This document shows positions 9,101 through 45,179 of a DNA stretch of 64,000 bases, piece by piece; position 1 is the first letter of the stretch; each line of letters starts with the position of its first letter. The notes beneath the pieces were generated by a model that had not been told where the DNA came from, did not search any database, and worked only from the letters and a program-made list of their open reading frames with translations. This stretch comes from an uncultured Gammaproteobacteria bacterium (lineage in GTDB: Bacteria; Patescibacteriota; Patescibacteriia; UBA11705; JABHMO01): the NCBI GenBank assembly GCA_964590105.1, contig CAZPYM010000002.1, forward strand, positions 26,697 through 90,696. Reading direction: 5' to 3'. Position numbers and translations under genes: made by a program.

Positions 9101-9847
9101 ATGCTAATAAAAACTCTTCAGGAAATCGGACTTTCTCCAAACGAAGCCAAAATATATGAAGCTCTTTTGGAGCTGAAACAAGCCGGCGTCGGCACGATTT
9201 CCAGCCATTCGAAAATACACCGAAGAAATGTTTACGACACAATCTCCCGCCTGGTTGACAAGGGTCTGATCTTCCCGGTCATCGGCAAAGGAGAGAATAA
9301 ATATTCACCGGTTGACCCGGGAAAACTTCTGGAATTAGTCAAAGAAAAGGAAACAAGTCTACTCTCCATCCTGCCACTCATGAAACAAAAATATGAGGAG
9401 CGCAAAACTCCGCAGGAAGCTTATATTTATCGCGGCGTTGAAGGATTCAAAAATTACATGCGCGATATTTTGAAAGAAGGGCAGGATGTTTATTTTATCG
9501 GCGCCAAGCTGGGCTGGCTGGACCCGAGGATCAAAACATTTTTGAACAATTTTTTAACCCTGGCCAAGAAAAAGAAAATCAAATTCCACCACATCTTTGA
9601 CACGGAAGTAAAAGAAAAAACTCCTGCCAATGAATTAGCTGAGCTCGGCCCGAATCATCGCTTCATGCCCAAAGAATTTTCCACGGTTTCCGCCGCTGAT
9701 ATTTTCGGCGACTATGTTGTCACCTTTACCGGATTAAATTATAAAAAGATTGATGACGACGTGACTTTATTTGTCCTGCGCGACAAGGATCTGGCTGACA
9801 GTTACCGCACCTGGTGGAAATTTATGTTTAATAATTGTAATAAATAA
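9101..9847 (+). CDS. TrmB-family transcriptional regulator
   Basis: MLIKTLQEIGLSPNEAKIYEALLELKQAGVGTISSHSKIHRRNVYDTISRLVDKGLI. 248 aa, typical size, C-terminal YRTWWKFMF motif. Confidence 0.8.
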   Translation: MLIKTLQEIGLSPNEAKIYEALLELKQAGVGTISSHSKIHRRNVYDTISRLVDKGLIFPVIGKGENKYSPVDPGKLLELVKEKETSLLSILPLMKQKYEERKTPQEAYIYRGVEGFKNYMRDILKEGQDVYFIGAKLGWLDPRIKTFLNNFLTLAKKKKIKFHHIFDTEVKEKTPANELAELGPNHRFMPKEFSTVSAADIFGDYVVTFTGLNYKKIDDDVTLFVLRDKDLADSYRTWWKFMFNNCNK

Positions 9848-9852
9848 TTTTA

Positions 9853-11576
9853 TGCTAAAAAAAATCATCTTCGTTTCAATCTGCCTGATTTTTCTTTTTC
9901 CCAATCTGACTTCAGCCCGAGAAAATGTTTACGATTGGTATATCCAGAATTTTTATACCAAAATTACGGTTAATCAGGATTCTTCTTTAATTATTGAAGA
10001 GCAAATCACGGCCGACTGCGGTAATGGCAATGACAAACACGGCATTTTTCGGGTCTTGCCGACGCAAACCAAAACTCCGGACGGCACGATCAAAACTCCC
10101 ATTGAGTTAATTAAAATTACCGACTTTCAAGGCCAACCATATAATTACCAAACCATTCGCGGGAATAATACCCTAACCTGGAAGATCGGCAATCCGGACA
10201 CATCCGTAAAAGGCGTTAACACCTATTTAATTGTTTACAAAGTAAAAAATACTGTCCAATTTAATAATTCCGAATTTGATGAATTTTACTGGAACCTGCT
10301 TGGCAACTTCTGGGATCTAGAAATTGACAACTTTACGGCCGACATTATTTTTCAATCAGCCATCAATCAAGACAATACCAAAATTGATTACTACGCCGGC
10401 AACCTGGGCTCAAAAGACAAAACAACCGCCGGCTATTCCTGGCTCAATAAAAACACACTGCGCTTCGAGTCCAATTCAATATTCTACAAAAGCCAAGGTC
10501 TAACTACCTCTGTCACTTTTCCAAAAAATATTCTTCAGCCGACCCGACTTAGTTTATGGGAGAAGTTAAATACATATTTTTTCTTTTGGCCGTTCATTAT
10601 CCCCGTCATTATATTTATACTTTGCTTTTTGGTCTGGATCCGCTTTGGCAAAGATCCAAAACACGGCAAAACCATTATTGCGCTTTATGAACCGCCAAAA
10701 GGTTTAACTCCGGCAGAAATCGGCTCAATCCATCAGGAAGGAACATTTAACGAAAGGCTGATAACCGCGACGATTATTAACCTGGCAGTCAACGGTTATA
10801 TTACCCTTGAACAAATCTCTGAAAAAAAGAAATTCAGCATAACCAAAACCAAGAACGATTTCAAAATAACGAGATTAAACAAAGAGCCGCAAGCTTTATC
10901 GTCTTTGGAAAAATTAATTCTGGACAATCTTTTGGATCAACAACCGGAAATAACTTTATCAGCCATACAAAAAACATTTCCCAAAAAGATTAAGGGGATT
11001 TCAAAACAAATCCAAACTGCGCTGATTGAAAAGGGTTATTTTGCCAAAAAGGGTTTCACCCTTAAGCCGATTTTTATAGGCATAGGCGTTGTAATCGGAT
11101 TTATTTCATTTGCCCACATAGAAAATAATTGGCTCTGGGGGCTGGCCGGGGTTTTATCCGCGCTTTCCATATTAATCTTCGGACTGCTCATGGCCCAAAA
11201 AACTCCGAAAGGAGCGGAAGTTCAATGGGAGATTAAAGGATTTAAACATTACATGGATGTAGCGGAAAAGCATAGGCAGGAATTTTATGAAAAAGAAAAT
11301 ATCTTTGAAAAGTTTTTACCGTTTGCCATTGCCTTTGGTATGACAAAACAATGGATTAACAAAATGAAACAGATTTACGGCGAAGACTTTTTCGCCAACT
11401 ACGCGCCCGCCTGGTACATTGGCTCGACAATGGGCGGCTTTGACGCTGACTCTCTGAACAGCAGCCTGACCAGCATTTCCAATGCTGTTTCGCAAAGCAT
11501 GGGCACATCGTCCGGCTCGGGCGGCAGTGGATTTTCCGGCGGCGGCGGCGGCGGTGGTGGAGGCGGCGGCTGGTAA
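9853..11576 (+). CDS. DUF2207-like membrane protein with C-terminal poly-Gly tail
   Basis: Signal peptide MLKKIIFVSICLIFLFPNLTSA, a large extracytoplasmic domain, TM helices in the middle, and a C-terminus SGSGGSGFSGGGGGGGGGGGW. This architecture is characteristic of DUF2207. The track ORF starts earlier at 9771 by TTG read-through. Confidence 0.65.
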
Positions 11577-11759: not shown

Positions 11760-12509
11760 TTATAGCTCATCTGAAACTTTGGAAATTTCCTGTCTAATGA
11801 TCATCACCTCTTCCATTGGCAAATCGCCGATTTGCTCGAGGCTTGTTATTCCGTGAGCATGAAGCACGGCATTCATCGCCTGCTTTCTTTTCTCCATAAA
11901 ACCAAGGTCACGAACATGACACAATGATTTGCCGCCAAAAGGCAATTCAAGTATGGCGACTTTTTCGGGCTGATCAAACTGCCGACGCAGAGTTTCTATA
12001 TCCGGCCCACCGGGCAAAGCAGGCATTGTTGTTCCCTCGTCCACAAACACTTGATCGACAATATACTTTTTCTCCGCCGTATCGCGGAATAACATTGTCA
12101 TCCGATTACCGGTAGACTGATCAATACAACCTTGCTCTTGCATGAACCTGTCAATTTCCTGAATAAACACCTCCATATCAACTACGCTTATCCGATTGTC
12201 CCAAAAAATGAAAGTATTTTTACCGACCTGGAAAGGGATTGCCCCTGCTCTGGTCGAACCACCAGAACCAATTATTACAATCGAATAATTATCCTTTTTA
12301 AGAGAAATTGAAACATGAATTTCTTTTGGTTCGCTTGTCCAAATTCGGGCAATCTTTTCAGCCGCGTCCTTTATGCCGAAGTTTCTAGTGAGATCGTATA
12401 AGTCCGCCAGCAAATCAGCTGACAAGCCGGGCAATTCCACCGGCGGATTTGTTAATTCAAAGAACTGAACAATCCGGGGATCAAATCTGCGCTCCAGCGA
12501 AAAGATCAT
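11760..12509 (-). CDS. hypothetical protein with C-terminal HhH-like motif; GC-rich
   Basis: 249 aa. The C-terminus NAVLHAHGITSLEQIGDLPMEEVMII resembles a helix-hairpin-helix. No confident family assignment. Confidence 0.55.
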   Translation of the reverse strand: MIFSLERRFDPRIVQFFELTNPPVELPGLSADLLADLYDLTRNFGIKDAAEKIARIWTSEPKEIHVSISLKKDNYSIVIIGSGGSTRAGAIPFQVGKNTFIFWDNRISVVDMEVFIQEIDRFMQEQGCIDQSTGNRMTMLFRDTAEKKYIVDQVFVDEGTTMPALPGGPDIETLRRQFDQPEKVAILELPFGGKSLCHVRDLGFMEKRKQAMNAVLHAHGITSLEQIGDLPMEEVMIIRQEISKVSDEL

Positions 12510-12613
12510 CAGTCACCTCCGTAAAACTAATCAAATCCCGTTAATAAATAATGCTAACACCACTAACCGTAATTGTCAATATTAAAAAAGCGCCCCGTCT
12601 CGAGAGAGCGCTT

Positions 12614-13291
12614 TTAGATCTTTAATGAAACCCGCGGCTTTTCCGCAGTCATCAGGGAATATATTCCGTCGGCATCGCACTCATCGGAAACAACAAAGCG
12701 CAATTTTGCTTGTCCGCTCCACAGATAGTGAGCGCCTTTGAACCCGCTGTCAATGATGCGAATCACCCTGATCGCAGCCGGCAAATCGCAAAGAACAGCC
12801 CGGCAAAAAGCGTTTCTGAACACTTCGCAAATTGTTGCCGGATGCCTGGTTTTCAGCGCCTCGCGCTCAAAAAACCTTTGCCAAGCGTGCGCTGATATCC
12901 GCACTTTTCCAAGTTTTTCATGCTCAAGCACGTGTCCGATCAATGTAGTTTCCAAACGTAGCGCTTCCAGCTTTTTCCAGGTCGCCGAACCGGATTGCGA
13001 CAACAGCTTCTTCAACAAGCAAAAGCTGCTCGTTATCTCTTCCACTGCTGGCCTGTAATTGTCCGGTCTGAAATGAAACAAAAGAAAATAAATAGAACTG
13101 CAGATCAACTGCACATTGAATTTCTCGCGCGCCCTCTCAATCGGAAAAGTGTAAAGCAGTTCAAAGTACATTCTCTCTTCGCGGTTGAAAACTTCCGCGC
13201 CGACAACGAGAATCAAGTATTCAAGCAAGAGCTTGAACTCTTGCTCTGGCAAAACCTTATTCAAAAGCTCTCTGATTCTTTCATCTTTCAT
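12614..13291 (-). CDS. hypothetical protein; ATG immediately preceded by a G12 tract; GC-rich
   Basis: gggggggggggg-aca-ATGaaagatgaaaga gives MKDERIRELLNKVLPEQEFKLLLEYL.... The track ORF from 13336 reads through the G-tract as GGGG. Which start is used depends on tract length. Confidence 0.55.
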   Translation of the reverse strand: MKDERIRELLNKVLPEQEFKLLLEYLILVVGAEVFNREERMYFELLYTFPIERAREKFNVQLICSSIYFLLFHFRPDNYRPAVEEITSSFCLLKKLLSQSGSATWKKLEALRLETTLIGHVLEHEKLGKVRISAHAWQRFFEREALKTRHPATICEVFRNAFCRAVLCDLPAAIRVIRIIDSGFKGAHYLWSGQAKLRFVVSDECDADGIYSLMTAEKPRVSLKI

Positions 13292-13294
13292 TGT

Positions 13295-13306
13295 CCCCCC
13301 CCCCCC
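13295..13306. repeat. homopolymeric C12/G12 tract
   Basis: Twelve consecutive C on the plus strand (G on the coding minus strand), 3 nt upstream of the ATG at 13291. No other homopolymer of this length was seen in the window. Confidence 0.9.
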
Positions 13307-13443
13307 TGAAACCTCAAACCTGGCGACGGCAAGCAAGATTATTTAGAAGTGTTGTTAATGCCCAGCGTCGATAAACCAGATTATAACAATCCGCAGATAC
13401 TGTCAAGCATCCGCGCTTATAAAAAAAATTTATTGAATTTCAG

Positions 13444-14172
13444 CTATTTACCGCAACCTCGCCATGCCAGGTTAAAAACCAATCTCATATTATTAGCGAT
13501 TTCATTACTTTCAATGATAACGCCCATTTTTTCTTTAAATGAAATAAAGGCTACCTTGTTGCCATAAACATCCATCTCACTTGTAAACGGATATTTTTCT
13601 TTTTTTACTAACCTCGTAACTTTTAAATCCGCTTCATCCGATAATTTATATTTTTTGATCTTATCAGTGTCAGGCCCGATTACTCTCGCAAAAATTTTAT
13701 TGTTTGTTCTTTTTAATTTATATTCATTTGCAAAGTCCTTGCCCAGATAAGCTAAAATATTGTCGCTGACAAAAGCATATAAATTACCGGTGTAATTTAG
13801 GGTGTCTCGATAAACTTCCTTCAATCCGTCAATACCTTCATAATAACGAATTTTTGGTTTTTCACCGGCCGTATTATAAAAAGATTTTAATAATGGCATG
13901 ACTTCCTCAAGTTGAGCTTTTTTTTCATCCAATAATTTATTTAATCGTTCCGGCTCTTCAGCATAGAAAAGTCTTTTTTTTCCTTTTTGCGTTTGGCCTA
14001 CTAGCCCGCGCCTGGTTAATTCAGTCAGAATATCATATACAGTCGGCCTTTTAATACCGGCTTTTTTTGCCAAATTTGTAACGCTGGTCTGCCCCAATTC
14101 CAAGCAGGAAAGATAAACCTTTATTTCTTTGTCACTTAAATTAAATTGTTTTAATACTTCTTCAATTTTCAT
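13444..14172 (-). CDS. TrmB-family transcriptional regulator
   Basis: MKIEEVLKQFNLSDKEIKVYLSCLELGQTSVTNLAKKAGIKRPTVYDILTELTRRGLV, ending ...FNLAWRGCGK. Confidence 0.8.
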   Translation of the reverse strand: MKIEEVLKQFNLSDKEIKVYLSCLELGQTSVTNLAKKAGIKRPTVYDILTELTRRGLVGQTQKGKKRLFYAEEPERLNKLLDEKKAQLEEVMPLLKSFYNTAGEKPKIRYYEGIDGLKEVYRDTLNYTGNLYAFVSDNILAYLGKDFANEYKLKRTNNKIFARVIGPDTDKIKKYKLSDEADLKVTRLVKKEKYPFTSEMDVYGNKVAFISFKEKMGVIIESNEIANNMRLVFNLAWRGCGK

Positions 14173-14373
14173 AAAATTATTTCTTTTAGTGTATTGTTCC
14201 GAGCGAGGAGAAACAACGCGTCGAAAAATGTCGGTAATTTCCGACTACATTTACATTATATCATACTATTATATCCCGTCAAGGTAACCGCGGTTTTTAT
14301 TTAATATTAGCCAATCATATTACTTAAAATTCACCACTCACCGACCACTACCCACCAAAAAGGTCGGTAATAA

Positions 14374-14402
14374 TTGACACTTTTGAAATTTTTTGCTATA
14401 AT
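14374..14402 (+). promoter_or_regulatory. sigma70-like promoter TTGACA-17-TATAAT for the GC-rich operon
   Basis: ttgacacttttgaaattttttgctataat. Inverted repeats ccgacc...ggtcgg (about 14341-14368) and tgtcgg-taattt-ccgaca (about 14231-14248) lie in the divergent intergenic region. Confidence 0.55.
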
Positions 14403-14458
14403 GCGCTGTTAAGATAAAGAAGTTCTTTTCATTACATCAACCATAAACGGGGGAAATC

Positions 14459-15397
14459 ATGAACTACGTTCAGCTGATTGAGAAAATGAAATCTGGCCTT
14501 GGGAAGTTATACAAGATGGCTCTAGATCTGGCCGCCATTCTGGACAGTGCGGCGGCGCAAGTAACAGAAGATGCAAGCCGCGGCTGGGAAGGACCGCGAG
14601 AGCAGAGACTTCGAACCTTCAACCTCCTGTGCGCTATCTGCGTCAAAGCCAACATTGCTCCTCCGAACTTGGAGGAAGGACTCTGGAGGGGAGCGCTTCC
14701 GCGAACTTACAACAAGGACCGCTTCGAACAGGCAAGGAAAGTCGCGCGAGAAACACGCCTCCGGGTACGCAAGCATCTGAAAGGACAAACCCGTCCCGCC
14801 GCGAACATGGCCCGCGCGCTCATGGAAACCATCAACCTTTTTCCGGATTGCGATGGCTTCACCGGCATCAACAAGGAAAACATCATGGCCATGCTCAACC
14901 GCCTTCTGGTGGACGAGCTCAGTCTCGCGCCCTTTCGGCCGGACTACAGCGCCATGACAATCCCCGACGTTCTGCATGCCGACGGTTCCGCCCGCCCTGC
15001 CACGGTCGTAATAGTTGACGACGATCCAAACGAACTGCTCAAGTCCGCGCTGACGCTGATCGGGATTCCAAATCTTGCGGTAAAATTCGTTCACTACAAA
15101 AGCGCTTCTGCCTGGAACAAACCACAAGGCCAGGAACTTCAGAACAAGCTCCTGGAAGTTGCCCGGTCTGTGCTGGAATTAACGCCGGACGTCATCGTGA
15201 TGGATCAGGGGCTCGGCGACATTGAAGGATCTGATCTTGTCACGACCATCAAGAACCAAAACCCGGAACACCGGCCAATCTTTGTCGCCAACACCGGCGG
15301 CGATCCGAACAAACTGCTCAATGCCGGCTGTCTCGATAACTTCGAGAAGGGTCGCGCTCCGAAAAGCATTCGACAGGCGATCAGCGCCGTCAATTAA
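14459..15397 (+). CDS. hypothetical protein with C-terminal receiver (REC/CheY-like) domain
   Basis: The C-terminus TVVIVDDDPNELL...PDVIVMDQGLGDIEGSDLV...PIFVANTGG...NFEKG has the DD, D, T and K positions of a receiver fold. The N-terminal ~170 aa are unassigned. GC is much higher than the window average. Confidence 0.6.
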   Translation: MNYVQLIEKMKSGLGKLYKMALDLAAILDSAAAQVTEDASRGWEGPREQRLRTFNLLCAICVKANIAPPNLEEGLWRGALPRTYNKDRFEQARKVARETRLRVRKHLKGQTRPAANMARALMETINLFPDCDGFTGINKENIMAMLNRLLVDELSLAPFRPDYSAMTIPDVLHADGSARPATVVIVDDDPNELLKSALTLIGIPNLAVKFVHYKSASAWNKPQGQELQNKLLEVARSVLELTPDVIVMDQGLGDIEGSDLVTTIKNQNPEHRPIFVANTGGDPNKLLNAGCLDNFEKGRAPKSIRQAISAVN

Positions 15398-15524
15398 AAA
15401 TCCAAAAAATATCTCGAGGGAAGTCACCATGTGGCTTCCCTCTTCAACCGCCGATTTCTTGGAAAAAGGAATCTGCAGTTGGAGATTTGTTCATTAAATT
15501 AAAAACAACCAAGAGGAGTCTGTC

Positions 15525-16193
15525 ATGACAACAGAAACTGATCATAAAAAAGCTCTTGAATTTTTCAAAAAGTCAAACCCAACTCTATATAACGATACGG
15601 AACAAATGCGGATCAAAATGCTTGAGCTCGAGGCCTGCACAAAAAACGAAACCAACCTCCCGGCCAAAAGCATCTATGTGCAAGGCCGAAACCTGCTGGC
15701 TTGCGCGCTCGGAGTTGAACTTCTCCCAGAAATTGAAATTCCGGAAGAAAAGGAAATGACCATGGATGAAATCAATGCCATTAGAATCGTGCCAAACCAA
15801 AAAATCACCGTTGTCATAGTTGACGACCGGCCAAATGAAGTTCAAGTCATGATATCCGTGCTCGAGTCCTGGCCCAATGTCCGAGTCTGGCCGATTATTG
15901 GCGAAATCACTCAGTGTTCTCCCAGAAAAACAGCAGGCTTGCTCACTGAACGCGAAAACCGGGTCTCGACTATCTGTCTTTTGGACGAAGCCATTGGCCA
16001 AATCAAGGGTTCTGATGTCGCCAAATTTCTGAATGAACTTGGTTTCGTCGGCATCCTGGCTTCAATCACCTCCGGTGAAAAGCCTGCTTTTACTGATTTC
16101 CACTTTGGCGACAAGAACAAAATGGCCGGCAACTATTTCATCAAGAAATTTGTTGAATTCATAAACCAACTGATCAGGGAGGAAAGACAATGA
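15525..16193 (+). CDS. hypothetical protein with C-terminal receiver-like domain (paralog of the previous C-terminus)
   Basis: KITVVIVDDRPNEVQVMISVLESWPN...ICLLDEAIGQIKGSDV...ILASITSGEKP...FGDKNK. Confidence 0.55.
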   Translation: MTTETDHKKALEFFKKSNPTLYNDTEQMRIKMLELEACTKNETNLPAKSIYVQGRNLLACALGVELLPEIEIPEEKEMTMDEINAIRIVPNQKITVVIVDDRPNEVQVMISVLESWPNVRVWPIIGEITQCSPRKTAGLLTERENRVSTICLLDEAIGQIKGSDVAKFLNELGFVGILASITSGEKPAFTDFHFGDKNKMAGNYFIKKFVEFINQLIREERQ

Positions 16194-16759
16194 ACCAGGA
16201 ATTGATGAGCCTCCGAACAACAATTCTCAGAAGCATCCGAGACCTGGGAGTTGATTTGGCGGAATTCACTGCCGCCTGCGCCTGCATGGCGCTGTCCCAA
16301 TCGGTCAGCATGGGGAAGATGATCAACGCGGGCAAACTGGATAGCAAAGATGTTCCGACCAATGCGCCTGGTACTATCATGTCCATGCTGGCGGACGATC
16401 AGGCAACCAGAGACATTTTCTTGCTGATTGCCAAATTGCTTTTCAGCACCAGCACGGCGCTGAACAGGCCTCTGACTTTTTCCGAAGTCGCGGGAATAAT
16501 CAAGTTCAATACTCAAACAGTGCCGAATGAACAGTTGAAAAAAGTCGCCGAGTATGTTGGTCCGGATGCTGTACCCGCTCATTTTCTTGGTGGGCCGGGA
16601 GTGCCGGAACCCAATCTGGCGGCCGCCTGGTTCTGGATGTTTCAAATATACCATGGAGCCGGCGAAAAGCTCGGCTTGACCGAAGTTCTGCTTCCCAGTT
16701 TCACTGATTTGCCGGAAAAAGTAGTAAAGAGCATTCAGCTCGTGATGCAAACTGCCTAA
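16190..16759 (+). CDS. hypothetical protein
   Basis: ATGA overlap with the upstream gene. 189 aa, no recognisable motif. Confidence 0.5.
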   Translation: MNQELMSLRTTILRSIRDLGVDLAEFTAACACMALSQSVSMGKMINAGKLDSKDVPTNAPGTIMSMLADDQATRDIFLLIAKLLFSTSTALNRPLTFSEVAGIIKFNTQTVPNEQLKKVAEYVGPDAVPAHFLGGPGVPEPNLAAAWFWMFQIYHGAGEKLGLTEVLLPSFTDLPEKVVKSIQLVMQTA

Positions 16760-16779
16760 CAACCCAAAAGGAGGACAAA

Positions 16780-17562
16780 ATGGCAGACAAATCTGATCAA
16801 CTCAAAGCACTGCTCGAGGCAAAGCAGTATGCCCAAGCACTCACGCTGATCAAGAGCGCCGACGACTACAATGAAGGTGAGAGCTTTGTCTTCGCAGTTC
16901 TGCGGCACAAGAAAGCCAGCCAGGCGCTACTCAACACTGCACTCAAAACTTTCATCAGGACAAGACAGAACTGGTATCGCCAACATGGATACTGGGTTCA
17001 CAGCTTGTCTCATTTCACCGGAGATCTCTGGGAAATGGGCCAACTGGACTGGATCAAGAAGCTCAACAAAATCGCCTTTGACGGCGTGCTTGAACTCGGC
17101 GACGACAATTGTTCTGAACGACTCGTAGGAGATTTTTTCCGACACAGTACCTGGGACATGGATCCTCGGGATTTTCACATCACGACTGAACTGCTTGACC
17201 ATTTCAAGTATGGCCGAGCCTATGGCCAGGCGCGCCTGGCTGTTTCTCCATTCGAAAGCGAAGCTGCTTTCAATGAATGGGAAGCTCGTTGGCATCTGAG
17301 TGCCGAGGGCTATGAAAAGAGTTTCAACTACGAAGCCCAGGAATCCATGGTCCATACCCAGGGTCTGACCAAATGGATCAAAATTCTGGCTGATCTGGGC
17401 CGAGACGTATCAGAATTCGACGGACTGATCAAGCGCCTCCTCGAGGCACAATTGATCGAATTCAAGGAAAAGCTGGAAAACGCGGACAAGGACTGGGTGC
17501 GCGAACACGCCGAAAAGGCAATTACAATCACCAAGGCCCAGCTGGCCGAACTCGATTCCTAA
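16780..17562 (+). CDS. hypothetical protein
   Basis: RBS aaaggaggacaaaATG. 260 aa, Trp/acid-rich, no recognisable motif. Confidence 0.55.
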   Translation: MADKSDQLKALLEAKQYAQALTLIKSADDYNEGESFVFAVLRHKKASQALLNTALKTFIRTRQNWYRQHGYWVHSLSHFTGDLWEMGQLDWIKKLNKIAFDGVLELGDDNCSERLVGDFFRHSTWDMDPRDFHITTELLDHFKYGRAYGQARLAVSPFESEAAFNEWEARWHLSAEGYEKSFNYEAQESMVHTQGLTKWIKILADLGRDVSEFDGLIKRLLEAQLIEFKEKLENADKDWVREHAEKAITITKAQLAELDS

Positions 17563-20188: not shown

Positions 20189-20776
20189 CTAAATCGCCTT
20201 CACAATATCAGCGATAGCGGCCATAGCGCCGACGCCCACGTCACCGCAGGCGAGTTTGCGCGATACCGGCGGAACCAGACGAAGGTCATACCAAATCTTC
20301 AATTTCGCCAAATGTTCGTCCGTGACCGGATGCTCCCACATCTTCGTGTTCATGGCCGGCGCGATTATCACCGGTTTACTTCTGTCCCAAGCGCGCAGAA
20401 CGCATGTAAGAAGATTGTCGCAAATACCGTTCGCGGCCTTGGACAAAGTGTTGGCCGAAAGCGGCGCGATCACTATCGCGTCCGCCCAGTCGCGAAGCGC
20501 GATGTGCGGAATTGACTGATTCTTGCGGTAACGCAGGCTCGGCCACTCGTCAAAATCAGTCCAAATCCTTGCGCCAGATATATGCGGCAGTTTGCCCCAG
20601 CCGAACTTGGTTCTGAGCAATTGCCCCAGGAAAAACCAAAATGGCTTTTTCTGAAAATATCCGGCGCTGAAAGTTGAAACGATCTGCACCTCATGGCCGG
20701 CTTTTTCCAGTTCGCAAACCAGCTTCTCCGCAAGAGTGGCCGCCACGCTTCCGGTAATACCCAGCAGTATTTTCAT
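20189..20776 (-). CDS. coaC: phosphopantothenoylcysteine decarboxylase-like flavoprotein (CoaC / HFCD family)
   Basis: Block-wise alignment to the E. coli Dfp N-domain: KILLGITGSVAA, HIALRDWADAIVIAPLSANTLSKAANGICDNLLT, PVIIAPAMNTKMW, LACGDVGVGAM. Confidence 0.8.
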   Translation of the reverse strand: MKILLGITGSVAATLAEKLVCELEKAGHEVQIVSTFSAGYFQKKPFWFFLGQLLRTKFGWGKLPHISGARIWTDFDEWPSLRYRKNQSIPHIALRDWADAIVIAPLSANTLSKAANGICDNLLTCVLRAWDRSKPVIIAPAMNTKMWEHPVTDEHLAKLKIWYDLRLVPPVSRKLACGDVGVGAMAAIADIVKAI

Positions 20777-21495
20777 TTCAGCCTCCCCGCCAATGCTTCC
20801 GGCAATTCATCGCGACTAACGCTTTTCGCTTTTCCTTTGCGATCAATAATGTACGCGCGCTCGCGCGCCCATTCGAGGCAATTTGCCACAATCAGGTCAG
20901 CATCGGAAACTGCGCGACTGCGCCTCGCGATTTCAATCAACTCCTCGTCGCTCTTGCCGACTTCCAGCTTGAACTTGACGAGATTGCCTTTGAATCCCCA
21001 CTCTTTCCGAATCCTATCCACGATCTTGAAGGTTGGAACCATGCGCAAAAAAAGTTCCTGATGTTTGGAAGAAATCTTGGCGCTCGAATCAGCTTCTGTC
21101 AGTCGTTCGTCCGCGCCGCGCTCGAAAACGCCCGCCACCTGATAATCGCTAACCGCGGCGGAGTGAATTACTACATCATAGCCGCCGGTGCGAATTTCTT
21201 CTTCCATGATATCTGCCAATTCAGCAAAAGTCTTGTACAACAGCGCGCGAGGATGCCGTATTGGATCCCATGATGCCCCGCCTCCGCTCCGATATCGGTA
21301 TCCAGCCATGTATCGATCTTCGAACTCTTTGACAAGAAGCGGATTCGAAGTAACAAGTACAACCTCATTTTGATGGCCATTCCACGACAAATCGAAAGCG
21401 ATCTCCGTTCCCGTGCGGCCGTGAAAAATGTTCGTGATCGCCCGCACCTTATCGATCATCACCTGCGTAGAACCGGCGGTTACGAGAATTTTCAT
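20773..21495 (-). CDS. coaB: phosphopantothenate--cysteine ligase (CoaB) domain protein
   Basis: KILVTAGSTQVMIDKVRAITNIFHGRTG matches the Dfp C-domain I(L/M)ITAGPTREPIDPVRYISNxSSGKMG, plus IHSAAVSDY and DLIVAN. ATGA overlap with coaC. Confidence 0.75.
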   Translation of the reverse strand: MKILVTAGSTQVMIDKVRAITNIFHGRTGTEIAFDLSWNGHQNEVVLVTSNPLLVKEFEDRYMAGYRYRSGGGASWDPIRHPRALLYKTFAELADIMEEEIRTGGYDVVIHSAAVSDYQVAGVFERGADERLTEADSSAKISSKHQELFLRMVPTFKIVDRIRKEWGFKGNLVKFKLEVGKSDEELIEIARRSRAVSDADLIVANCLEWARERAYIIDRKGKAKSVSRDELPEALAGRLK

Positions 21496-22917: not shown

Positions 22918-23697
22918 ATGAACCTTCGACATATGGCCCAAACAATAACAATATTAAAACAATTTGGATTAACGGAGACTGAAATAAAGATTTATTTAGC
23001 CGGATTGAAATATACTGCGCTTTCGGTCAGCGACCTAGTTAAACAAACGGGGATCAAACGCACAACCATCTATCATGCTTTGGAAACCTTGATTCAAAAA
23101 GGTCTATGTTCGAAAAAACAAATTATTGGCAAACAGGCATTCAACATGACTGCGCCAAAAAATATAGAAAACCTTTTAACTGAAAAAATTGATGAATTGA
23201 ACAAGCAAAAAACTGCTTTACATGAAATAATCCCCTTGCTCGAAGCCAGTCAAACCGCCGGGACAAAAATGGTTGTTTCGCATTATGAAGGCATTGAAGG
23301 AATCAAACTGGTAGTCGAAGATGCTCTTTATTGCAAATCCAGACATTGGGATATTTTGGCGCCGGTGAAAAACTTTTTTTCTGAATTTGATAAAAGTTAT
23401 GCTGACTATTTTGTAACAACCAGACAACAAAGAAGCTTGACCGCCCGCTCACTGTGGGAAGTTGCTGTGTCCCCACAAAACTTAACGCCAGCGGTCTTAA
23501 AAGAACGCAATCCAAGGATTTTACCAAAAGTTATGCACGGAAAATTTAAGTCAGTAATTTGTTTATATGATGATAAAGTCTTGGTTATTTCTTCTCTTAA
23601 AGAATTGTATGCAGTCCTAATTCAATCACAAGAATTTCATGAAACCATGAGCTCAATTTACGAGGGGCTATGGCAAAGTTCAAGGCCGGTTAAATAA
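22918..23697 (+). CDS. TrmB-family transcriptional regulator
   Basis: ILKQFGLTETEIKIYLAGLKYTALSVSDLVKQTGIKRTTIYHALETLIQKGL. Confidence 0.8.
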   Translation: MNLRHMAQTITILKQFGLTETEIKIYLAGLKYTALSVSDLVKQTGIKRTTIYHALETLIQKGLCSKKQIIGKQAFNMTAPKNIENLLTEKIDELNKQKTALHEIIPLLEASQTAGTKMVVSHYEGIEGIKLVVEDALYCKSRHWDILAPVKNFFSEFDKSYADYFVTTRQQRSLTARSLWEVAVSPQNLTPAVLKERNPRILPKVMHGKFKSVICLYDDKVLVISSLKELYAVLIQSQEFHETMSSIYEGLWQSSRPVK

Positions 23698-43007: not shown

Positions 43008-43406
43008 TTAATTTACTGTAGTTCCAATTTTTTCAATCACATAATGCGTAACCTGATAGGCCATGAGGGTCACCAGCAGACCGATGGCGCCATGGATCAG
43101 GGTATTGCGCGCTTTTGTTACATTTTCAGGATTGCCGCCGGAAGTCAGCCAAGTAATACCACCGTACAAAACAACGATCATGAAAATTATTCCCAAAAAG
43201 CTGACCGCCATGCCAACATATTTTCCAATTATATATTCCAATGTTGGCGTATCAGCCCCTTCAACTGCCAGCCCGGACATCTTGGCGGCCTTGTCCAGCC
43301 CGCCGGCTAGACTGGTCGTATCTCCGGCCAGCACAACGGAAAAACAAAAAAAACTTCCAATTGCCAGCAAAATAATAAGTATTAGAATTGAATGTGTATT
43401 TTTCAT
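43008..43406 (-). CDS. T4SS-pilin-like protein, paralog 4
   Basis: Core MIVVLYGGITWLTSGGNPENVTKARNTLIHGAIGLLVTLMAYQVTHYV. Confidence 0.7.
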   Translation of the reverse strand: MKNTHSILILIILLAIGSFFCFSVVLAGDTTSLAGGLDKAAKMSGLAVEGADTPTLEYIIGKYVGMAVSFLGIIFMIVVLYGGITWLTSGGNPENVTKARNTLIHGAIGLLVTLMAYQVTHYVIEKIGTTVN

Positions 43407-43487
43407 AGCTGATTCCCCGCCACTATAAAGCTGGTGGAAATACTTTCAACTTTTCCCTTTTCCATTTTCCCTTTTCCCTTTCAACTT

Positions 43488-43880
43488 CTACTCAACTGTC
43501 GCCGCCATTAAACTAGTCAGAACAAACCTGGTAATAGCGTAAGCAGAAAGAATAATAATTAGGCCAACAATTCCGGACATGATATATCCCGTAGCCTCCT
43601 TGGCTTTTTCATCACTGCCGCCAGCCACCATAAACTTGAATCCTCCGACCAGAATAAGCACAATGGCCACTATGCCAAGAAATCCCAAAACCACATTGAT
43701 GAGCGCGCCCGCGGTTTCCTTGAGGTCCCGATCTCCTAGTTCTGTCTGAATTTCCACATTGCTTAGCCCATACAATTCACCATTATCAGCCAAAACAGCA
43801 GAAGAGTAAAAAAAACTTCCCATTACAAGTAATATAAAAATGGCTAAAAGTGAACGCGCATTTTTCATACTTCTCATCAA
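43488..43880 (-). CDS. T4SS-pilin-like protein, paralog 5
   Basis: Core LILVGGFKFMVAGGSDEKAKEATGYIMSGIVGLIIILSAYAITRFV. Confidence 0.65.
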   Translation of the reverse strand: MMRSMKNARSLLAIFILLVMGSFFYSSAVLADNGELYGLSNVEIQTELGDRDLKETAGALINVVLGFLGIVAIVLILVGGFKFMVAGGSDEKAKEATGYIMSGIVGLIIILSAYAITRFVLTSLMAATVE

Positions 43881-43953
43881 GCAACTATTGCCTGAATAAT
43901 TATTTAATGAGAACCGGGCAGGAGGAATACCCCCCCTGCCCGCAGATTCTTTT

Positions 43954-44349
43954 TTATTCAGTTGTTGCCGTCATTAAGCTGTCCAAGACAAAACTGGTAA
44001 TGGCGTAAGCCGCGAGAATTATTGCCAGGCCGATAATACCATTGATAATGTATTTCTTGGCCTCATCAGTTTTCTCTGCTGCGCCTCCGGCTGTCATATA
44101 CTTAAAGCCGCCCATCAACACGATCACAATAGCTACTACTCCCAAGAATCCCAAAATCACACTTATAACTGAGCCGATCGTTGCCTTTAGATCCTGTTTT
44201 CCAAGACCTAACTCCCCCATGTCCTCAAGGCCATATATAGCATCCCCCTCATTATCACCAGCTAAAACCGGCAAAGCCACTGTCATCGCCATCAAGAGAA
44301 AAAGGCAGACGCCTGTAATCATCTTGATTTTTTTGTTGTCTAAATACAT
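43954..44349 (-). CDS. T4SS-pilin-like protein, paralog 6
   Basis: Core IVLMGGFKYMTAGGAAEKTDEAKKYIINGIIGLAIILAAYAITSFV. Confidence 0.65.
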   Translation of the reverse strand: MYLDNKKIKMITGVCLFLLMAMTVALPVLAGDNEGDAIYGLEDMGELGLGKQDLKATIGSVISVILGFLGVVAIVIVLMGGFKYMTAGGAAEKTDEAKKYIINGIIGLAIILAAYAITSFVLDSLMTATTE

Positions 44350-44390
44350 GTGCGTTTCAATTAATTATTAATTAGTTTATATTTAAATTT

Positions 44391-45179
44391 TTAACCCCAG
44401 AAATCTAAATTTCCAATAATATAACCAACAATGATGTAACTGATAAAAATCACAAACAAACCCAGCGCCGCCCAGATCATAGATTTTTCCGCCGTGTCAA
44501 TTTTCTTTGACTCGCCCATAGCAGTCATCCACATTATACCACTATAGATGAAAACTATCAAAGCGATTGAACCGATTATCCCCAAGAGCAGGCTGACAGC
44601 ATTACCAGCCAAGACTGAAACATCATCGGTCTTGACCATCTCGCCCGGAAAAGTTGAATCAACCTTGGCAATGGCGTCTTTTACCGCTTGTTCTGCTGAT
44701 GGACCGGATAGCGCCGGAGCGGGTACCGTAGCTCCACCGCTTGGAAGGGTGGCAGAACCGGTTCCTCCTACGGCAGCGCCAGCAGGGGCGACTGTTTCTT
44801 CCACTTCCTTTACGTTAGTCAGTGTGCAAGTCGCACTCACTGTAACTCCTGGAATTTTTGGCAGGATGCTCGTATTGCAGTCTGCTTCCTTGACATCGGT
44901 TTTAGAATAAGTGCAATCACAATTAGGATCAGCCCACGTACAATTAGCAGCGTTAACAAAGTCTACACAAATTTGCTTGTTTGCTGCACTCAAAGCCAGA
45001 CCAAGAATCGTTCCTTCGCATTTTGTGCATGCTGGTTCGTCCACGAGAAAACCAGATAATTTTCCTGCGCAGTCGCAAGTTCCGACCTTTACTTTTACCG
45101 CGCCACTAGCTTGCGGGAAAAAAAATAACATCAAACAGCACAATAATGTCGTCGGGATTATAAGTTTTTTTATTTTCAT
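44391..45179 (-). CDS. Cys-rich secreted protein with C-terminal pilin-like domain
   Basis: Signal peptide, about 12 Cys in the first 110 aa (GTCDCAGK...CTKCEG...CTWADPNCDCTY), an Ala/Gly/Pro-rich linker, then LIVFIYSGIMWMTAMGESKKIDTAEKSMIWAALGLFVIFISYIIVGYI. Confidence 0.65.
   Translation of the reverse strand: MKIKKLIIPTTLLCCLMLFFFPQASGAVKVKVGTCDCAGKLSGFLVDEPACTKCEGTILGLALSAANKQICVDFVNAANCTWADPNCDCTYSKTDVKEADCNTSILPKIPGVTVSATCTLTNVKEVEETVAPAGAAVGGTGSATLPSGGATVPAPALSGPSAEQAVKDAIAKVDSTFPGEMVKTDDVSVLAGNAVSLLLGIIGSIALIVFIYSGIMWMTAMGESKKIDTAEKSMIWAALGLFVIFISYIIVGYIIGNLDFWG

Follow-up and report, generated by a model that had tools for sequence, protein, structure and literature searches.

The window analysed here is a stretch of 64 kb in which a minus-strand gene at 12614..13291 (gene 1, 225 amino acid residues, start codon ATG at 13291) is preceded by an uninterrupted run of twelve G residues. 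This G12 tract occupies 13306..13295 of the minus strand, from −15 to −4 with respect to the ATG, which is the Shine-Dalgarno (SD) position of gene 1; on the plus strand the same tract reads as twelve C at 13295..13306. The order of elements on the minus strand is ...GGTTTGAGGTTTCA-G12-ACA-ATG, with ACA at 13294..13292 and the ATG codon at 13291..13289, in agreement with the distance of 3 nt given in the initial annotation. A second minus-strand gene at 11760..12509 (gene 2, 249 amino acid residues) lies downstream of gene 1. The GC content is 42.2% for the window, 46.8% for gene 1 and 44.0% for gene 2.

The tract had been described as the only long homopolymer in the window, and no other G or C run longer than 7 nt was found; C7 and C6 come next, and G runs on the plus strand do not exceed 5 nt. 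With independent positions, the base composition predicts 0.0018 C runs of at least 12 nt for the whole window; a length of 12 was attained in four of 2000 shuffles. G/C runs of at least 6 nt are otherwise depleted about four-fold (3 observed versus 11.3 expected). The G12 tract is a real, non-random sequence feature, and its retention despite this depletion hints at selection or a very recent origin, neither of which is accounted for by a passive SD.

An upstream ATG at 13336, in frame with the tract and liable to be shifted out of frame by slippage, had been proposed. The in-frame codon at 13336..13334 (minus strand) is in fact TTG, is not preceded by an SD and is not a start codon. Two orthologs of gene 1 (L017:3578-4252 and L020:247-909, 42–44% identity) align residue 1 to residue 1 with its product. 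Because both align from Met1, the start was assigned to ATG 13291 and the tract to noncoding sequence, so that insertions or deletions in it shift no reading frame.

The near-consensus promoter reported for gene 1 was confirmed at 13406..13380 of the minus strand. It consists of TTGACA (13406..13401), a 15-nt spacer and TATAAT (13385..13380), to which a TGn extended −10 element can be added. The promoter scan lists sites with spacers of 16–18 nt only, so this site was unlisted and was read by eye. It ends 74 nt upstream of the G12 tract, and no other promoter nearer to the tract or spanning it was detected by the scan or by inspection by eye. Because of this distance the tract does not form a promoter spacer; it neither separates nor overlaps the −35 and −10 elements, and changes in its length leave the promoter geometry intact.

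The predicted 5′ UTR of gene 1 (13373..13292, minus strand) is about 80 nt long, about 55 nt longer than in the relatives; the distance from the TTGACA-type promoter to the ATG is 53–63 nt in the other family members versus 115 nt for gene 1. The additional stretch of about 55 nt is left unexplained if the tract is a plain SD. In the minimum free energy (MFE) fold of the leader, a C/U-rich stretch, CUUGCUUGCCGUCGCC (about 13337..13322), pairs with the G tract. This fold is no more stable than those of shuffled sequences (z = +1.2) and no Rfam family reaches the gathering threshold in the leader, and a structured leader or riboswitch was rejected on both grounds. An origin of the 5′ UTR from a mobile element or repeat was likewise rejected, there being no second copy within the window.

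Gene 1 is followed by an intrinsic terminator at 12615..12586 (minus strand) with an 11-bp stem and a U-run; the terminator region has a folding energy of −27.6 kcal/mol over 91 nt (z = −2.7 versus shuffles). Directly after it, at 12579..12551 of the minus strand, a promoter-like site TTGACA-17-TAGCAT with TG before the −10 element precedes gene 2, which has its own GGAGG SD. This arrangement contradicts the two-gene operon of the initial annotation, and equally the control of 11760..12509 by the gene 1 promoter: gene 2 appears to be transcribed separately. The G12 tract would not control gene 2, and such control cannot be assumed. The gene 1 ortholog of L017, the closest relative, likewise has a hairpin and another promoter downstream of it, and only in L017 is a gene 2 homolog linked to gene 1 homologs. 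At that locus (L017:3578-5882) a paralog with 32% identity comes after the gene 1 ortholog, and the gene 2 homolog lies only 30 nt beyond this paralog. A paralog of this type was either lost from the genome of the window or never present in it; no gene 1 paralog was found elsewhere in the window. Pfam, NCBIfam, PADLOC and PHROGs gave nothing in favour of the HhH-like nature ascribed to gene 2. Neither gene 1 nor gene 2 had a match in PADLOC or PHROGs, and an origin of the two genes in a defence system or a phage was rejected.

A word-indexed homolog search had suggested that gene 1 was an ORFan, a view overturned by a full HMMER scan of 1.84 billion representative proteins, in which 37 relatives were recovered. 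The motif of the family reads V.VT.HAW.RF.ER ... LRFVV ... L.TVE.P., and alignment A1 contains an invariant C-terminal signature comprising H135, R139, R143, F162, R178, Y189, R198, T215 and E217. The product is composed of an N-terminal helical part (residues ~1–115) and a C-terminal alpha/beta part (~121–217), and the AF2 model built with the family alignment has a pLDDT of 93 and a pTM of 0.87. No named family in Pfam, NCBIfam, PADLOC or PHROGs and no PDB sequence match was obtained for gene 1. A Foldseek comparison of the model with the PDB gave nothing significant, the best matches being HigB, colicin D and CdiA-CT (E 0.3–1.1, TM at most 0.4). The C-terminal alpha/beta domain with its invariant His, Arg, Tyr and Glu residues is weakly reminiscent of RelE/HigB (ParE-superfamily) and BECR-type toxins, from which the gene 1 product differs by its fused 115-residue N-terminal helical domain and by the lack of a significant sequence or structure match to the RelE/ParE superfamily. 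No antitoxin-like partner of gene 1 was identified. A RelE/BECR-like nuclease domain may be present and is taken here as a lead, not a finding. The product looks cytoplasmic and devoid of the usual hallmarks of phase-variable genes, such as a surface location or a restriction-modification function.

The position of the tract was compared with that of the translation initiation signals of its relatives. At all five other family loci (two in L017 and one each in L020, L021 and L022/L023) a canonical SD without a homopolymer is found at the tract position, the motifs being AAGGAG, GGAAAGGAGG, AAGGGGA, AGAGGAGG and AAAGGAGG, with GGGGA and AGGAGG types included. With respect to the ATG, these motifs span −5 to −13 and the G12 tract −15 to −4. 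The family SDs (GGAGG/GGGGA) share with the tract the position, the predicted pairing with CCUCC and a comparable duplex energy, and differ in not being expanded; among the six family loci examined the 12-nt homopolymer is unique to gene 1. The tract has the features of an SD, being G-rich, complementary to CCUCC (the anti-SD is assumed), located 4–15 nt upstream of the start and placed where the homologs have theirs. GGGGG serves as the SD of the nearby gene starting at 14459, which likewise belongs to the GC-rich class of SD-using genes.

Duplex energies were modelled with an assumed canonical 16S tail, the 16S rRNA gene lying outside the window. With this tail the anti-SD duplex has −14.6/−14.7 kcal/mol at every length of at least 10 G, and −13.7, −11.4 and −9.4 kcal/mol at G9, G8 and G5, respectively; four natural SDs modelled in the same way gave −8.4 to −16.3 kcal/mol, as compared with −14.7 for the tract. 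Since the modelled energy is flat from G10 onwards, G11, G12 and G13 are predicted to be equivalent as ribosome-binding sites. It had been claimed that slippage would alter the spacing between the SD and the ATG. The tract itself is the SD surrogate, however, and because its 3′ end always lies 3 nt from the ATG this spacing is fixed.

These observations are best accommodated if the G12 tract is a slippage-expanded, lineage-specific SD element in front of a monocistronic gene whose family is rare and uncharacterised, which is the probable explanation. Replication slippage in this lineage would have lengthened a short G-rich SD of the AAGGAG or AAGGGGA type, and the lengthened form would have been retained. 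The expanded tract would function as an SD through base pairing to the CCUCC(U) tail assumed for the 16S rRNA, and with pairing in any register and a fixed 3′ end, changes of one or two bases would have next to no effect on initiation. The SD would be weakened only by larger contractions, to less than about G9, and then gradually. A mutable expression modulator is possible; the potentially mutable tract would be at most a graded, slow "rheostat" rather than an ON/OFF contingency switch. An SD-like motif precedes 12 of the 44 genes of the window and the other 32 have none, and given this proportion the dependence of the organism on SDs is uncertain.

To follow the length of the tract in public metagenome assemblies, 16 contigs were retrieved by means of the exact products of the flanking genes, namely a TrmB-type regulator (13444..14172) and gene 2. 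The contigs came from ENA (MEGAHIT, k141), JGI and Logan assemblies, that is from several samples and three pipelines, and each of the 16 matched the window at 100% identity from end to end. Twelve G were found in each of the six contigs that bound the tract on both sides. Two further contigs reach exactly 12 G, one ending on the twelfth G (L003) and the other starting on the first (L012); L004 and L005 alone read well past the tract (>300 nt). The length of 12 is reproducible across samples. No length variants were seen at the consensus level, in contigs that are clonal and thus uninformative on mutability: given the zero divergence among samples and the consensus nature of the sequences, a constant G12 says little on this point. 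A pattern scan allowing 6–30 nt between the flanks found no tract-length variants in the JGI metagenome and GTDB genome collections. Exact-product look-ups of gene 1, as the 225-residue protein or the 240-residue version starting at TTG, returned no recorded positions, and a search with the three-ortholog alignment yielded no relatives in the genome, metagenome and viral collections.

Nine of the 16 contigs have an end no more than about 20 nt from the tract; inside 13285..13316 such ends occur in 7 of the 9 contigs anchored on the TrmB-type gene and in 2 of the 7 anchored on gene 2. This clustering fits heterogeneity among the reads or, equally, loss of Illumina quality at poly-G together with low coverage. 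The G12 tract is in any case a reproducible breakpoint of short-read metagenome assemblies of this genome. Further recurrent breaks fall within gene 1 or at its end, at 12978..12983 (four contig ends) and 12635..12637 (three); neither site has a repeat. Full-length gene 1 is contained in none of the retrieved short-read contigs.

The initial annotation saw in the tract the classic architecture of a slipped-strand contingency locus. Part of this description stands: G12 is long enough to slip (about 7–9 G/C or more being sufficient) and lies in the 5′ UTR, at the ribosome-binding site, behind a strong promoter. The remainder fails, since the tract lies outside both the ORF and the promoter spacer, single-base changes are neutral in the SD model, no tract of constant or varying length is kept in the orthologs (L017, L020, L021, L022/L023), every one of the six bounded assemblies reads G12 at the consensus level, and the tract stands alone in the window. 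That gene 2 is transcribed separately and that the gene 1 product appears cytoplasmic, being neither a surface nor a restriction-modification protein, are further reasons why the architecture is not the classic one. A true simple-sequence contingency locus, in which frequent slippage would set the mRNA level or translation of gene 1 through the tract length and give populations of mixed states, is accordingly unlikely. In its favour, the tract is strongly non-random, follows a near-consensus promoter, and with 12 G exceeds tract lengths that vary in known systems (G6–G12 in uspA1, PMC7302503; 6–16 G in tlpB, PMC8295292); contig ends cluster at it, and those of L003 and L012 fall as expected from branching of the assembly graph. 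The same breaks, however, would arise equally from collapse of Illumina quality at poly-G and low coverage, and others occur at repeat-free sites. No mechanism for single-base effects is apparent for this location, and both the single tract in 64 kb, where contingency loci are expected in genomes enriched in such tracts, and a gene class that is not typically phase-variable, rather than a surface, restriction-modification or host-interaction target, speak against it.

A dependence on length could also arise if the tract formed an RNA G-quadruplex (G4) hiding the SD, with translation de-repressed at 10 G or fewer and shut off at 15 or more. Folding with ViennaRNA and G4 energies forms a two-layer G4, from four G-runs with at least two tetrads over the ribosome-binding site, only when at least 11 G are present (MFE about −40 versus −22 without G4), and a three-layered one at 15 or more (about −58); this is the sole length-dependent step in any of the models. 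It is purely a model with generous parameters, in which the energy per layer is probably too high; G4s of only two layers joined by single-G loops have little stability, and no conservation is seen in the relatives. RNA G4s in bacteria are reportedly mostly unfolded or selected against, and such a threshold has only a slim chance of operating here. Alternatively, a C/U-rich small RNA acting in trans might bind the tract, with an effect set by the length of the G-repeat, by analogy with RepG, the target of which the tract resembles in geometry (5′ UTR, 12 G). The sole other notable C run in the window, C7 at 43930..43936, belongs to the stem of a terminator hairpin between two pilin-like genes, fully paired and not exposed in a loop, however, and no candidate was found in the 64-kb window, out of about 594 kb; a RepG-like regulator is highly improbable. 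Taken jointly, the G4 and small RNA variants of a modulator are still very unlikely, and a hypermutable element embedded in the ribosome-binding site, tuning a putatively RelE-like nuclease-domain protein through a G4 threshold or graded SD strength, would be very unlikely as well. Finally, the very frequent breaks of assemblies at the tract might point to an assembly or sequencing artefact, caused by poly-G dark cycles or a mis-joined contig. The tract is internal, though, with unique flanks on both sides, and was obtained identically from MEGAHIT, JGI and Logan in several samples; L004 and L005 read more than 300 nt beyond it, and the flank is continuous with the start codon validated by the orthologs. 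An artefact is largely refuted and exceedingly improbable. 

The expanded SD favoured here was set beside known G-tract systems. The upstream poly(G) tract of uspA1 in Moraxella catarrhalis, of 6–12 residues and noncoding, has a graded high/low effect via the mRNA level, and its length varies between strains (6, 8, 9 and 11) and during passage; the gene encodes a surface adhesin (PMC7302503). The tract of gene 1 resembles it as a G homopolymer upstream of the ORF and not coding, and differs in that no variation was seen (clonal consensus), the SD is overlapped and the product looks cytoplasmic. In the leader of tlpB-hp0102 of Helicobacter pylori a G-repeat, with 12 G in strain 26695, confers gradual post-transcriptional control by the small RNA RepG, for which the C/U-rich loop of the RNA is needed, and the repeat length differs among isolates (PMC8295292). 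The likeness lies in a homopolymeric repeat of 12 G in the 5′ UTR, whereas RepG is known there and here there is no such RNA in the window and no length polymorphism among the clonal contigs. The classic simple-sequence repeat (SSR) loci, with poly-G/C tracts within genes or in the spacer between −35 and −10, have in common with gene 1 a long G/C homopolymer at the 5′ end of the gene; they differ in that G12 is in neither ORF nor promoter spacer, is a lone tract and showed no polymorphism among the clonal contigs. By analogy, the closest functional counterparts would be the noncoding graded poly-G tracts of uspA1 and tlpB, in both of which variation in length has been observed and is the defining feature.

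Should the tract vary in length and tune expression, stochastic regulation by SSRs would be extended to ultra-small uncultivated bacteria. A contingency function, if true, would make this the first contingency locus of the simple-sequence type to be described from an ultra-small bacterium of the CPR/Patescibacteria-like kind, an affiliation suggested for the host by its 594-kb contig and gene content, and a poly-G embedded in a ribosome-binding site would join the short list of noncoding, non-promoter SSR switches (uspA1, tlpB/RepG); in the literature no paper was found that mentions both phase variation and Patescibacteria. A homopolymer beside a start codon does not by itself make a contingency locus: once ortholog starts, promoters and terminators were used as context, most of the mechanism proposed for gene 1 fell away.

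Two classes of translation initiation are apparent in the window. The 12 of 44 genes with an SD-like motif have a mean GC content of 48.2%, and the 32 genes with A/T-rich leaders and no SD one of 41.1% (Mann-Whitney p = 2.6e-6). Eight of the 12 SD-led genes fall in two clusters, 11760..17562 and 20189..21495, made up of gene 1, gene 2, four plus-strand genes at 14459..17562 and CoaC/CoaB at 20189..21495; between the clusters lie AT-rich TrmB-type regulators without SD. Three TrmB-type winged-helix regulators within 15 kb (9101..9847, 13444..14172 and 22918..23697) flank the GC-rich clusters. In the four-gene plus-strand cluster at 14459..17562 (45–56% GC) a 312-residue protein gave a sub-threshold match to the receiver domain PF00072 (29.0 bits versus a cut-off of 30.2), a 222-residue protein contains a similar VVIVDD-PNE stretch without a receiver-domain match, and proteins of 189 and 260 residues belong to no family. 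The GC skew of the plus strand is strongly and uniformly negative, about −0.14 (15411 C versus 11604 G), and the minus strand carries most genes of the window, as would fit a single replichore arm.

At 43008..45179 (minus strand) lie three paralogous membrane proteins in tandem, each of about 130 residues, which share the motif GGFK(F/Y)M.AGG and are pilin-like by eye; they are followed by a 262-residue protein with a related C-terminus, and a G7/C7 terminator hairpin is located at 43915..43942. The DUF2207 membrane protein at 9852..11576 (plus strand) ends in an 11-glycine tail, which in the window is encoded without a long homopolymer; its homolog at L017:1684-3375 has C8 and C6 runs at the 3′ end of the gene, which would be a coding poly-G/C tract.
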